From the IMG/VR virus record IMGVR_UViG_2802429220_000015: a stretch of DNA of 32,883 bases; one strand, written 5' to 3'. This document shows, in pieces, positions 1 to 4,007 of this stretch. Each line of letters opens with the position of its first letter. The first letter of the stretch is position 1. The notes beneath the pieces are model-generated. The model had not been told where the DNA came from. It saw only the letters and a list, made by a program, of their open reading frames with translations, and did no database searches. A program made the translations under genes and the position numbers. The DNA comes from a virus. Taxonomy: Duplodnaviria; Heunggongvirae; Uroviricota; Caudoviricetes.

Positions 1-648
1 TTATGCTGATTTCTTGTTTACAGGCTTAGTTTCTTGCTCCGGTGTGACGGGAACGCGATCACCTGGTGTTCCAGCACAGAAAATAGCTTTGGCGCGGCGC
101 AAAATCTCTTTGTCATTTTCCTCATCGCCAGCTAATGCCATGCAAACAGCGTCTTTAAGCGATTGCCTGATGTTCAGGCTTTGAATGGCCTTCCTTTGTT
201 CCTCAAGTTCGCTATCGGCTTGCTTGGTTTGCCTGGTGGGTTGCTGTAGGCGTTCAAGGACTCCTTTGATGCCAATACAACACAGCATATCAATAAGACG
301 CTCTCTATCTTCTGGAGTAGCTCGCCTTAGTATTTCATCGACAATACTTGTGTTTGGGCGGTTAACGTCTTCTGTAGGCACCTTTTTTTCTATTATTGGA
401 TCACGATCGCCCTCACCGTAGACCAGCCATTCCAGTGATACATTCTCTAATTTTGCTATCGTAGCGACCACATTTAGGCCGGGAGTGGTGCCTTTCTCAA
501 AGTAGTTATTTATGGTCGAGTACGGCAACCCCCAGTCTGAGGTGGCTTTACGCAGACTCCTAGTGCCAACCAGTTGCTTGATTCTGTCCTGAATGCTTTC
601 TTTTCTATTCTGAGAAAAGGAAAAATCATCGGCGGTTTGTTTACTCAC
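1..648 (-). CDS. Prophage repressor with XRE-type helix-turn-helix, in the position of the Mu c repressor
   Basis: Only leftward gene, divergent from ner-A-B. Translation has an HTH-like segment (TRSLRKATSDWGLPYSTINNYFEKG...LNVVATIAKLENVSLEWL). Track ORF runs to a TTG at 663; I place the start at the GTG at 648 because GAGGAAAG sits just upstream on the coding strand. No S24 peptidase motif seen in the C-terminal part. Confidence 0.72.
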   Translation of the reverse strand: MSKQTADDFSFSQNRKESIQDRIKQLVGTRSLRKATSDWGLPYSTINNYFEKGTTPGLNVVATIAKLENVSLEWLVYGEGDRDPIIEKKVPTEDVNRPNTSIVDEILRRATPEDRERLIDMLCCIGIKGVLERLQQPTRQTKQADSELEEQRKAIQSLNIRQSLKDAVCMALAGDEENDKEILRRAKAIFCAGTPGDRVPVTPEQETKPVNKKSA

Positions 649-663
649 TTTCTTTCCTCTCAA

Positions 664-816
664 TCTATTGATTTACAACACATTTCTACAAAAAGACTTT
701 CTTTTCACCAAAGCAAGAAAAGAAAGCTTGTAATTTTCTATTTATGGATCAATACTTATATCCGAAGGGATAACACGGCGGTGTTATCCGCACGGATAAC
801 TTTTAAGGGTAACCTA
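664..816. promoter_or_regulatory. Divergent early promoter/operator region between repressor and ner, expected site of the Mu-type transposition enhancer
   Basis: AT-rich 153-bp intergenic stretch. Inverted repeat GGATAACAC-GGCG-GTGTTATCC at about 768..789 and a third GGATAAC half-site at about 794..800. In Mu the operators in this position double as the enhancer (established knowledge, not verified for this sequence). Confidence 0.55.
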
Positions 817-1053
817 ATGATGGTTAGAAATGAAGTAATGAACAAAGACTGGCACCGCGAGTACATCGTTGCCGCTGTGCACACCAAAGGTTTTACATTG
901 CGTGAACTTTCTGAACGCGCTGGTCTAAAAAAAGACTCTTTAAAAAATGCACTGTATCGCTCATGCCCTAAATATGAACGCATCATAGCCGATGCTATTG
1001 GTGTGGAACCTGCGGAGATCTGGCCAAGCCGGTATGCCAGTAAGGCGGCGTAA
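817..1053 (+). CDS. ner: Ner-like DNA-binding early regulator
   Basis: 78-aa product starting at the internal ATG of track ORF 574..1053 (MMVRNEVMNKDWHREYIVAAVHTKGFTLRELSERAGL...), resembling the Ner/Nlp family; lies directly upstream of the transposase and its stop overlaps the MuA start. Confidence 0.85.
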   Translation: MMVRNEVMNKDWHREYIVAAVHTKGFTLRELSERAGLKKDSLKNALYRSCPKYERIIADAIGVEPAEIWPSRYASKAA

Positions 1054-3095
1054 TGTTTTATTCAGCCAATGAGCTGGCCGGTCTTCCTGGTTTGCCCGGT
1101 ACAGTTCAGGGGGTGCGCTGGACGCTCAATCGGATCACAGATACGCACCCGGAATGGAAGCGCAAGCGCGAAGGCACCAAAGCATTCGAGTATCACATCG
1201 ACTGCCTGCCCGCTGAAGCGCAGAAAGTTTTACGTAAGCGCCTGACCCATCAGGTTCTGGAAGATGCACAACTGCCCGCCGTGGTTGAGCAGAAGGCAGT
1301 TAAAAACGTCGCCGTTCGCGATGAACTGGAAGTGATGGTCAAATGCCCGGAACTGGCATTACGCGAAGTCCAGGCACTGACCGACAAGCAAAAGGCCATT
1401 GCTGATGCGCGGATATTGCTGGCTACTGAAGTGCATAAACTGCGTGAATACGCCGGAATGACCAGGAAGGCCGCGTTAAAGCACATCGTTGATGGTGTGC
1501 GCATGGGGGCGTTGCCTGACCGCATTATCGAAGCAGCGAATACTGCAAATGCACGTCAGGGAAAGCGAACCGGTGTCAGCACCGGCAGCCTGGATAGCTG
1601 GTACTCCAGCTGGGTGATGGCGCGCGGTGATGCCAATCAGTTACTGGCGTTACTGGCTCCCGGTCATCATAAGGGAACACCGTGGGAGCAGGTCTGGTGG
1701 TTGAGCGATTTCTTTATGTTCTATCGCTCATGGAAGCGCCCGACCGTTGAATATGCGTATCGCGAGTTTTCAGCCTGGTGGCATGAGAAGCACGCGAACG
1801 ATGCGGGAATGCTGGCGGCACTGCCTTCCGTTCACGCAGTAAGACGGGTATTAAGCAGTGTCCCGGTGATTGTTAAGGAGCGTTTCCGCTCCACCGGTTC
1901 AGCCTGGCGTTCGCTCAATCCCTTTGTGCGACGCGACTGGAGCACATTACCGGTTAATGCGGTATGGGTCGGGGATGGTCACTGTATGAAACTGATGGCA
2001 TTCAGCCCTGCCACCGGGAATACATTCCGGCCAGAAGTGACGCTGGTTATGGATGCAGGACAACGCTTTATTGTGGGCTGGTCGCTGTCCCTGTCGGAGA
2101 ACGTGGTGGCCGTTGCTGATGCATTGCGTCATGGCATGTCACAACACGGAATACCGCTGATTTATTACTCCGATAACGGGGGCGGTGAAAAAAACCGGGT
2201 GCTTGATGCCGATATTACCGGGATTTTGCCCCGGCTGGGTGTGGAACATCACACGGGGATACCAGGTAACCCGCAGGGGCGCGGGGTAATAGAACGGGCA
2301 AACAAAGGAATACCCAAAGATGTGGCTCTGAGTTTCCAGACGTACTGCTCAAAAAATGCAGACAAGGAAACGGTGATGATGCAGCAACGCATCACACAGT
2401 CAGCCATTAAGGCCACCCACAAAGGGAAGGAGCTGACAAAGCGGCAGGTTAAAGCAATGGGAGAAGTCCCCACCTTTGAGCAATTGATGGCCGCAATAGA
2501 GCTGGAGGTAAAACGGTATAACAACCGCCCACACAGCAGCCTTCCCCGCAAAGAGGATGGCGAACATTACAGCCCGGCAGCGTATCGCCGGAAACTGATA
2601 AAAGAGCAGAAAGCTGAAATCGACATGCTGTCGCCGGAAGAACTTCACGAAATGTTCCGACCGGAAAGCATCTGCACAGTGCGACGCGGTGAAGTGGTGT
2701 TATTCAGAAACATCTATTTCTCCACAGAACTGGCAGCAGAGCACGGAAATGAAGTCAGGGTTTGTTACGACATTCACGACGCAAACAGCGTGATTGTCAG
2801 GCGGATGGACGGTTCTTATATCTGCGATGCCATCTGGAACGGTAACAAGGTTGATGCGTTCCCTAAAGCTGTTATCGAACAACAGCAGGAGAAACGCACC
2901 AGAGGCCGCATTGCACGGGCCGCGCAGAAAATCGAAGAGGCTAAACGCGAGCTTACTCCGGCTATTACGCAGAAACCTGACTTTAATTTTGGATTTGGTC
3001 TGGAGCGCCCGGAGAAAAAGGAAAAAGAAGAACTTTATTTATTCGCATCTGAACGCGAACGCAATTTAAAGAAAAACGGCACAAACAACCGTTAA
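1053..3095 (+). CDS. MuA-like DDE transposase
   Basis: 680-aa product; N-terminus MFYSANELAGLPGLPGTVQGVRWTLNR... is typical of Mu transposase A; size and position (after ner, before the B ATPase) match Mu. Confidence 0.93.
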   Translation: MFYSANELAGLPGLPGTVQGVRWTLNRITDTHPEWKRKREGTKAFEYHIDCLPAEAQKVLRKRLTHQVLEDAQLPAVVEQKAVKNVAVRDELEVMVKCPELALREVQALTDKQKAIADARILLATEVHKLREYAGMTRKAALKHIVDGVRMGALPDRIIEAANTANARQGKRTGVSTGSLDSWYSSWVMARGDANQLLALLAPGHHKGTPWEQVWWLSDFFMFYRSWKRPTVEYAYREFSAWWHEKHANDAGMLAALPSVHAVRRVLSSVPVIVKERFRSTGSAWRSLNPFVRRDWSTLPVNAVWVGDGHCMKLMAFSPATGNTFRPEVTLVMDAGQRFIVGWSLSLSENVVAVADALRHGMSQHGIPLIYYSDNGGGEKNRVLDADITGILPRLGVEHHTGIPGNPQGRGVIERANKGIPKDVALSFQTYCSKNADKETVMMQQRITQSAIKATHKGKELTKRQVKAMGEVPTFEQLMAAIELEVKRYNNRPHSSLPRKEDGEHYSPAAYRRKLIKEQKAEIDMLSPEELHEMFRPESICTVRRGEVVLFRNIYFSTELAAEHGNEVRVCYDIHDANSVIVRRMDGSYICDAIWNGNKVDAFPKAVIEQQQEKRTRGRIARAAQKIEEAKRELTPAITQKPDFNFGFGLERPEKKEKEELYLFASERERNLKKNGTNNR

Positions 3096-3113: not shown

Positions 3114-4007
3114 ATGAGTTTAATTACGCAATTAAATGACGTAATGGCCCGTCGCGGCTATACGCAGACCCACGTCGCCCGTGCTATTGGTCGTAGCAGC
3201 GCCGTTATCAGCCAGTATTTGCAGGGTAAATATCAGGGCGATATGTCTGATATTGAAGAACGCATTTCTGCCTTTGTGACCCGTGAGCGGGAAAAAGAAA
3301 ACAGCCGCCGTATTAAAGCAAAGTTTGTGACCACCGGTATGGCTGCCAAAGGACTGGAGGTGCTGGCCTACGCTCACCTGGAATGTGAAATCTGTGTGCT
3401 GTATGGCGCAGCAGGTCTTGGCAAAACAATGATTCTGCGTGAATACGCCGCCAGAAACCGGGATGCGGTCCTGATTGAAGCCGACCCGGGCTATACAGCC
3501 AGAACACTGCTTGAGGAGCTGTGCCGCCAGCTGGGGGTAAAAGTTCGCGGCAATATCCACGAACTGATTGATGCATGTGTGCGAGAACTGCGTGATTCCG
3601 GTCGTCTGCTGATGGTGGACGAGGCTGAACTGCTCCCCTATCGCGCACTGGAGGTTCTGCGCCGTCTGCATGACAAAGCGGGTATCGGGGTTGTTCTGGC
3701 GGGTATGCCTCGCCTTCTGATTAACCTCAAGGGGCGTCGTGGTGAGTTCGCCCAGTTATACAGCCGCGTGGCGCTGGCGCTTAACCTGGGCGATACGTTG
3801 TCGCAGGAAGATTTTAACCAGATAGCTACCGGGTTGATGCCGGAAGCAGCAGAGCCGGAAATCAGCGAGGCGCTTTATACACGTTCGCTGGGTAATGCCC
3901 GCCGTCTGTTCAAGCTGGCGCGTGGTGTGTACCGGATTTGTGATATCAGCGATGCGCCGGTCAGTGTGCAGGCCATTGATAAATTCGCAGAAATGTTAAT
4001 TCACTGA
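3114..4007 (+). CDS. MuB-like ATP-dependent target DNA activator (AAA+ ATPase)
   Basis: 297-aa product with N-terminal HTH-like segment and Walker A motif GAAGLGKT; immediately downstream of the transposase. Confidence 0.9.
   Translation: MSLITQLNDVMARRGYTQTHVARAIGRSSAVISQYLQGKYQGDMSDIEERISAFVTREREKENSRRIKAKFVTTGMAAKGLEVLAYAHLECEICVLYGAAGLGKTMILREYAARNRDAVLIEADPGYTARTLLEELCRQLGVKVRGNIHELIDACVRELRDSGRLLMVDEAELLPYRALEVLRRLHDKAGIGVVLAGMPRLLINLKGRRGEFAQLYSRVALALNLGDTLSQEDFNQIATGLMPEAAEPEISEALYTRSLGNARRLFKLARGVYRICDISDAPVSVQAIDKFAEMLIH

Follow-up and report, generated by a model that had tools for sequence, protein, structure and literature searches.

The divergent repressor-ner region of a Mu-like prophage carries a cluster of inverted GGATAAC half-sites directly in front of ner, which raises the question of what reads them: the Ner-like protein, the prophage repressor, the transposase, a host factor or, if they act as RNA, the early transcript itself. 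We addressed this question in the window (the whole stretch of DNA that was analysed, i.e. 32,883 nucleotides, IMG/VR virus record IMGVR_UViG_2802429220_000015) and in related loci.

Genes and prophage context

An earlier description, made from the sequence alone, had assigned this interval to the control region between repressor and ner in a Mu-like element. The neighbouring genes confirm this assignment, with PF07022 on one side and PF13693 followed by MuA- and MuB-like genes on the other:

1 to 648, minus strand: CI-type repressor gene, 215 amino acids from a GTG at 648, Shine-Dalgarno AGGAAAG, PF07022 (E=1.6e-6), RefSeq WP_047088848.1
817 to 1053, plus strand: Ner-like gene, 78 amino acids, HTH_35 (PF13693; E=9.3e-26, 90 bits against a cutoff of 25), Shine-Dalgarno AAGGG at 805-809
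1053 to 3095: MuA-like transposase with PF02316, rve and Mu-transpos_C domains
3114 to 4007: MuB-like AAA ATPase

RefSeq WP_000989761.1 is annotated at the coordinates of the Ner-like gene. A prophage of E. coli 08-00022 shows 100% identity to the window, with RefSeq gene coordinates in agreement, and the window opens exactly at the repressor stop codon. The left end of the prophage (attL) lies ∼310 bp to the left of the window start and carries three TTCTGGGCG-type repeats without GATAAC (L004 2690-3000, L002 1190-1500); these repeats are likely to be the transposase end-binding sites. The 08-00022 prophage is located inside another prophage, and the related prophage of E2348/69 interrupts eutC.

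Four alternating half-sites upstream of ner

Sequence reading and a pattern search both placed copies of GGATAAC at 768-774 (plus strand), 783-789 (minus strand) and 794-800 (plus strand), in accordance with the three alternating half-sites of the sequence-only reading. The inventory of that reading was nevertheless incomplete, as it had missed both a second repeat family at 697-726 (described below) and a fourth, degenerate half-site, TATATCC at 757-763, which brings the array to four half-sites of alternating orientation:

757 to 763, minus strand: half-site 1, TATATCC (reverse complement GGATATA), degenerate, directly after the predicted -10 and over the predicted start of the early transcript
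768 to 774, plus strand: half-site 2, GGATAAC, extending to GGATAACAC (768-776), the left arm of the palindrome
783 to 789, minus strand: half-site 3, GTTATCC, extending to GTGTTATCC (781-789), the right arm of the palindrome
794 to 800, plus strand: half-site 4, GGATAAC, forming an 8-bp inverted repeat (GTTATCCG/CGGATAAC) with half-site 3

The four half-sites are each 4 bp apart, with centres spaced by 11, 15 and 11 bp, and have the consensus RGATAAY; the array ends 4 nt before the Shine-Dalgarno sequence of ner (AAGGG, 805-809). At its centre is a perfect 9-4-9 palindrome, GGATAACAC-GGCG-GTGTTATCC (768-789), which has no other match in the 32.9-kb window when up to 3 mismatches are allowed and which was produced in 0 of 100 dinucleotide-preserving shuffles (0 expected). 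A repeat finder also reported 18-nt arms at 759-776/781-798 with 83% complementarity, together with a 16-nt direct repeat, TATCCGAAGGGATAAC and TATCCGCACGGATAAC, 26 bp apart. The pattern TTATCC-N4-GGATAA is matched at 758-773 (1 mismatch) and at 784-799 (0 mismatches). The array can thus be read in two ways: it may consist of two TTATCC-N4-GGATAA palindromes at a distance of 26 bp, or of one perfect palindrome in the centre with an auxiliary half-site on either side.

The window as a whole contains 17 copies of GGATAAC, compared with 2.5 expected from dinucleotide shuffles. The 14 copies other than those in the array are single and unpaired (e.g. 5019, 7422, 18390, 18999, 19347, 30281 and 32398), no second paired GGATAAC site was found in the window, and 7 of the 10 plus strand copies outside the array are in-frame codons, xxG-GAT-AAC, encoding Asp-Asn. 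The window-wide excess is therefore a coding effect that is separate from the array, and a role for GGATAAC as a dispersed functional motif was rejected because the other copies are single and most of those on the plus strand are such codons. The non-random part is the occurrence of three to four GGATAAC-type sites within 44 bp, inside an intergenic region of 168 bp.

A predicted early promoter next to the array

A strict scan of positions 550-950 for sigma-70 promoters and terminators gave no match. Under relaxed criteria there was a single plus strand promoter candidate upstream of ner in 600-900:

728 to 756, plus strand: predicted early promoter Pe, with -35 TTGTAA at 728-733, a 17-bp spacer and -10 AATACT at 751-756

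This candidate is weak when taken by itself: it matches the consensus at 4/6 + 4/6 positions, which is under the threshold of the strict scan. A -35/-10-like pair with 17-18 bp spacing, ending 58-60 nt before the ner ATG, was present in 9 of 9 loci scanned, with -35 hexamers (TTGTAA, TTTACA, TTGAAG, TTGATT, TTTACT) located in at least five mutually non-homologous upstream sequences. Since the same promoter geometry recurs in nine loci, we take the pair to be the early promoter. The early transcript would then start at ∼762-765, inside half-site 1, and the array would extend from approximately +1 to +40. The relaxed scan gave no convincing candidate for a leftward repressor promoter (Pc). The promoter spacer contains a GATC (Dam) site at 747-750, directly 5' of the predicted -10 (GGATCAATACT), which is kept in 11 of 12 distinct relatives despite their differing upstream sequences, the exception being L081.

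Half-sites are conserved and spacers vary

Relatives of the locus were drawn from E. coli genomes, Yersinia phage vB_YpM_5, two Edwardsiella species, IMG/VR contigs and metagenomes, and 12 distinct versions of the array were aligned (alignment A5). A scan of genome contigs with the Ner alignment found two Edwardsiella loci only, the peptide patterns being narrow; scans of viral and metagenome sequences yielded more.

Across the 12 distinct relatives the mean column entropy of half-sites 1 to 4 was 0.33, 0.39, 0.12 and 0.41, and that of spacers 1 to 3 was 0.54, 0.79 and 0.61. Half-site 3 is the best conserved element, its entropy of 0.12 being the lowest of all blocks. The TATC core of half-site 1 is retained in 10 of the 12, four columns of half-site 2 (G16, A17, T18 and A20 of alignment A5) are invariant, and half-site 4 has the variants AGATAAC, GGATAAT, GGTTAAT and AAATAAC. 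Spacer 1 occurs as GAAG, GTAG, GCAG or ATAC, spacer 2 as GGCG, GCAG, CGCC, CGAC or TGCT, and spacer 3 as GCAC, GTAC, GCGC, GTCC, GCCC or GCAA. In E. hoshinae, whose Ner is 91% identical to that of the window, all four half-sites are retained and all three spacers are unlike those of the window. The sequence-only reading had proposed conservation in relatives as a check on its sites, and in these 12 distinct versions the half-sites have been kept rather than lost. Conserved half-sites separated by freely changing spacers form a pattern typical of a protein site, and the alignment is consistent with the array being one.

The array travels with ner and not with the repressor

The ner gene and the array were found together in 49 of 5426 complete E. 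coli genomes (∼1%), and only 21 of these 49 also have a repressor N-terminus and a left half of the window type. C5 and E2348/69 have a Ner that is identical to that of the window and an array that is identical (C5) or has one base different (E2348/69); their repressor N-terminus is 49-52% identical to that of the window, and the DNA to the left of ∼743 is unrelated to it. At L081 the homology breaks exactly at the left edge of half-site 1. Taking all loci together, the array or one of its variants accompanies ner in at least five different settings of repressor and left-hand DNA.

The variants of the array are shared in the same manner. L034 and L081 (Ner 85-86% identical) have the half-site 4 GGTTAAT in common, with different repressors and left regions, and L022 and L028 (Ner 74% identical) both have AGATTAT as half-site 2 and AGATAAC as half-site 4, again with different repressors. 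In these comparisons, array variants follow the Ner variant and not the repressor type. The most distant loci with GATAA cores have a Ner that is 73-74% identical to that of the window, a repressor N-terminus that is 42-51% identical and a MuA N-terminal region (140 amino acids) that is 42-49% identical; of the three candidate binders, Ner has changed least where the sites persist. The predicted recognition helix of Ner, DSLKNALYR, is invariant in the loci that retain GATAA cores. The sole change beside this helix, from KK to NQ, NK or KQ, coincides with A in place of G as the first base in several half-sites; a tie between the two changes is suggestive only.

Overall, these comparisons favour the Ner-like protein over the repressor as the probable binder. 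None of the complete E. coli genomes had the reciprocal mosaic, in which a different ner accompanies the same repressor and left half, so linkage and function are not fully separable, and the co-inheritance of the sites with ner could reflect mere physical adjacency. The MuA-like gene is as closely linked to the array as ner is.

A separate repeat family follows the repressor

The left half of the intergenic region contains repeats that are unrelated to the GGATAAC array:

697 to 726, no strand assigned: second repeat family, a perfect 10-bp inverted repeat, CTTTCTTTTC-N10-GAAAAGAAAG, which abuts the predicted -35; also listed at 716-733
647 to 655: third copy of the second family, ACTTTCTTT, over the repressor start and its Shine-Dalgarno sequence

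These repeats bear on the possibility that the array is instead the operator of the CI-type prophage repressor, which would bind it in the lysogen and so shut off the early promoter. The predicted start of Pe, where a lysogenic repressor could act, is overlapped by the array, and the repressors of the group are all homologous (PF07022) with similar predicted recognition helices, ST(I/L)NNY. However, little or nothing changes in the array across at least five types of repressor and left region, in which the repressor N-terminus is 42-52% identical, and it is separate repeats that track the repressor type and that abut or overlap the predicted -35 in the window- and C5-type loci examined. Repeats of the CTTTCTTTTC type accompany window-type repressors (L007, L010, L012, L016 and L080-like loci), and TTTTTGCTTT-type repeats take their place in the C5/E2348 immunity types, which have a different repressor N-terminus. 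In addition, were the array the repressor operator, all of the mosaic immunity regions would have to be homoimmune, with no explanation for the diversity of their left halves. We therefore consider it very unlikely that the array is an operator of the repressor. The second repeat family is, judging by this distribution, likely to be the operator of the CI-type repressor and is a better candidate for that role than the GGATAAC array.

The Mu operators O1-O3 and the Mu enhancer are composed of CTTTT(Py)N(Pu)-type repeats, and the N-terminus of the Mu repressor is homologous to the N-terminal domain of MuA. The array does not correspond to a Mu-type c-repressor operator or enhancer of this kind: it has no CTTTT motif, the adjacent repressor belongs to PF07022 and not PF02316, and there is no co-variation with repressor type. 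The CTTT(T/C) character of the second repeat family does recall the Mu operator/enhancer consensus.

The E2348/69 repressor (L002 1501-2148) is chimeric, with a C-terminal half that is near-identical to that of the window and an N-terminal DNA-binding half that is C5-like; there is thus a recombination joint inside the repressor gene, besides the joint at ∼743.

Comparison with known Ner systems

D108 has an inverted repeat with 11-bp arms, CCGTGAGCTAC-N8-GTAGCTCACGG, at 996-1025, directly before ner at 1050. Like the window, this transposable phage has perfect inverted repeats between its divergent repressor and ner genes, just ahead of the ribosome-binding site of ner, and its Ner is 50% identical to that of the window. 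It differs in having 11-bp arms and an 8-bp spacer, compared with 9 bp and 4 bp plus two extra flanking half-sites in the window, and the two sequences are unrelated. The D108 repressor is Mu-c-like, whereas that of the window is CI-type (PF07022).

The Ner operator of Mu comprises 12-bp repeats with the consensus ANPyTAPuCTAAGT, located between Pe and Pc, and was footprinted in the older literature. In the Mu sequence (L005) we found CTAAGT at 1035, ACTTAG at 1047, CTAACT at 1061 and ACTTAG at 1081 (to 1086), in alternating orientation before ner at 1099, with no other copies of CTAAGT/ACTTAG in the first 1.5 kb and with the last copy overlapping the ner Shine-Dalgarno sequence. Mu therefore resembles the window in having four alternating half-sites downstream of the Pe start and upstream of ner, and differs from it in half-site sequence, in spacings and in a Ner that is only 43% identical. 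Ner reportedly represses both Pe and Pc in Mu and D108 (work attributed to Goosen and van de Putte and to Tolias, Kukolj and DuBow). In the GenBank record of Mu, early promoter and Ner-binding region are annotated at 991-1028 and 1063-1101, and published accounts confirm the divergent Pe/Pc arrangement and the role of Ner in general terms only (PMC3820752; PMC9936078).

The array has no similarity to the Ner-site consensus of Mu (ANPyTAPuCTAAGT) or of D108 (CCGTGAGCTAC). A different site sequence is expected, because the Ner proteins are only 43-50% identical and the recognition helix is different; the mismatch argues against the same specificity and not against the same kind of element.

The closest relative with a solved structure is EnrR of Edwardsiella piscicida (7F9H/7F9I), which belongs to PF13693 like the window's Ner (E=6e-17); the structure of Mu Ner (1NEQ) also matches (E=9e-13). 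EnrR is a domesticated protein that binds AT-rich DNA genome-wide and antagonises H-NS, with the consensus AATAAATNATTTATT (PMC9023278). In the crystal, two monomers are bound to the self-complementary CGAAATATCTATAGATATTTCG, with the HTH in the major groove, and the DNA is a palindrome that includes ATATC-TATA-GATAT and thereby TATC-N4-GATA (PMC9023278). Three residues, Arg47, Asn51 and Arg55, make base contacts; the G of GATA is contacted by Arg47 and the central T/A by Arg55, itself stabilised by Asn51 (PMC9023278). The Ner of the window retains the equivalents of Asn51 and Arg55 (N44 and R48) and has Asp40 in place of Arg47, and the TATC/GATA spacing is 6 bp in the array as against 4 bp in the crystal DNA. 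The binding mode of EnrR is a reasonable template for the window's Ner, but its specificity is not transferable.

The closest isolated phages are the Yersinia phages vB_YpM_5 and vB_YpM_6 (Muvirus; MT374853 and MT374854), with a Ner that is 74% identical. Their array, TTTATCT-GTAG-AGATTATCC-GGCG-GTGTTATCC-GCGC-AGATAAC, lies at the same distance from ner as in the window. It differs in half-site 2 and in having A rather than G as the first base of half-sites 1 and 4, which coincides with the change from KK to NQ directly ahead of the recognition helix of Ner. The repressor and left half are unlike those of the window, and the region is annotated with hypothetical proteins only, with no operator described.

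Palindromes ahead of ner are also common among more distant Ner loci (35-58% identity), although they are heterogeneous and several of the loci have none; these loci back the reading of the array as a Ner operator only in a general way. At two of them, L055 and L057 (Ner ∼53% identity), the tblastn match to Ner is preceded, at a distance of ∼60-84 nt, by a pair of AGCTC-N4-GAGCT-type palindromes that lie 23 bp apart. Their half-site resembles the GAGCTAC core of D108, and their arrangement recalls the two-palindrome reading of the array in the window. This suggests that an operator of two palindromes is a recurrent design in the Ner family.

Transposase, RNA and host factors as alternative readers

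The Mu transposition enhancer is located in the repressor-ner intergenic region, where it shares its DNA with the CTTTT-type repressor operators rather than with the Ner site. The array might be all or part of such an enhancer (internal activating sequence), to which the MuA-like transposase would bind through its N-terminal winged-helix domain. The transposase does carry the PF02316 Mu DNA-binding (enhancer/operator-binding) domain (residues 7-140, E=4e-10), the region is equivalent to that holding the enhancer in Mu, and the transposase gene shares the linkage of ner to the array. However, the N-terminal 140 amino acids of MuA are only 42% identical in the Yersinia-type loci that retain GATAA cores, the CTTT(T/C)-rich repeats in the left half of the region resemble the CTTTT-type operators of Mu more than the array does, and the transposase end sites at attL are of the TTCTGGGCG type, without GATAAC. 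The enhancer explanation is very unlikely on this evidence. The array as a transposase end-type site was rejected on the same attL repeats.

The palindromes could also act mainly as RNA, either as a 5' stem-loop (759-798) that stabilises the early mRNA or modulates ner translation, or through alternative hairpins (768-776/781-789 versus 783-789/794-800). The RNA from 757-840 has a predicted folding energy of -29.9 kcal/mol (z = -5.2), which none of 200 shuffles equalled, with a hairpin of 6 bp + 9 bp at the predicted 5' end, and 88% of the hairpin cells are paired across the 12 relatives. Such a fold is nevertheless automatic for any palindromic operator. Four of the 12 sequences, those of the Yersinia type, have lost 3 of the 9 pairs of the inner stem with no compensating change (columns 15, 19 and 22), covariation is weak, with both sides changed in only 5 cells, and the two-palindrome scheme scores about equally (both ∼80-88% paired). 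Moreover, the half-sites retain their GAT(A/T)A core whether pairing is kept or not. Rfam gave no match, the only hit (STnc40, on the opposite strand; E=0.2) being a chance one whose 22.7 bits fall below the gathering score of 45. There is little prospect that RNA is the main form in which the palindromes act; the hairpin may be a side-effect or a secondary function.

GATAAC is similar to the Fur hexamer GATAAT, and CGGATAAC is also present in lacO1. A site for a host factor (a DnaA box, a Fur-like GATAAT array, IHF or a LacI-like protein) or a functionless chance palindrome is the least credible explanation and can be set aside: half-site 3 plus spacer, TTATCCGCA, matches the DnaA box TTATCCACA at 8 of 9 positions, but this is the only such match to the 9-mer TTATNCACA and its CACA part falls in the freely varying spacer 3; the array hexamers are 6-8 bp apart, whereas Fur boxes are contiguous; the nearest IHF-like string, GATCAATACTTAT, carries 2 mismatches and is located in the -10 region; the lacO resemblance fails on spacer variability and geometry; and chance is excluded by 0 of 100 shuffles and by conservation across genera.

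Proposed function as a Ner operator

The array has the position of a Ner operator, lying between the repressor start (648) and the ner ATG (817) and following a predicted -10 that ends at 756. The neighbouring gene belongs to the Ner family (PF13693), and the inverted half-sites are conserved where this Ner is kept. We consider it probable that the array (757-800) is the operator of the Ner-like HTH_35 protein encoded at 817-1053 and serves to repress the early promoter. It would then be a Ner operator, a known kind of element, with a sequence not described until now; the Mu-like prophages of this clade have CI-type repressors.

Ner would most likely act by occluding the early promoter at its start and across the initial transcribed region. 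As the array begins directly after the predicted -10, bound Ner would cover the start site and the first ∼40 nt of the early transcript. Occupancy by Ner would throttle transcription of ner, A and B, i.e. autoregulation, and would probably also reduce leftward transcription of the repressor, as in Mu and D108. 

There is also a slim chance that the Ner operator doubles as a transposition enhancer read by the MuA-like N-terminal domain, with Ner competing directly with the transposase. Such a double role is possible because the CI-type repressor no longer shares its DNA-binding domain with the transposase, and it would couple shut-off of the early promoter to the control of transposition. In a related and similarly improbable variant, the mutually exclusive palindromes (the central one versus the two flanking ones) would constitute a two-state switch for different Ner occupancies.

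The array provides a concrete candidate operator (four RGATAAY half-sites spaced by 11, 15 and 11 bp) for a Ner clade that is present in E. coli, in Edwardsiella and in Mu-like phages of Yersinia pestis, none of which has a described switch. The layout appears modular, with one operator set travelling with the repressor and another with Ner, which would explain the swaps of immunity regions among prophages. The natural variants form a small specificity series for the Ner/EnrR family, e.g. GGATAAC with KK versus AGATAAC with NQ. The array is otherwise an expected feature of a Mu-like lysis-lysogeny switch and leaves the current understanding of that switch unchanged.

At the downstream end of ner, the stop codon overlaps the start of the transposase gene (TAATG, 1050-1055), which suggests that ner and A are translationally coupled.
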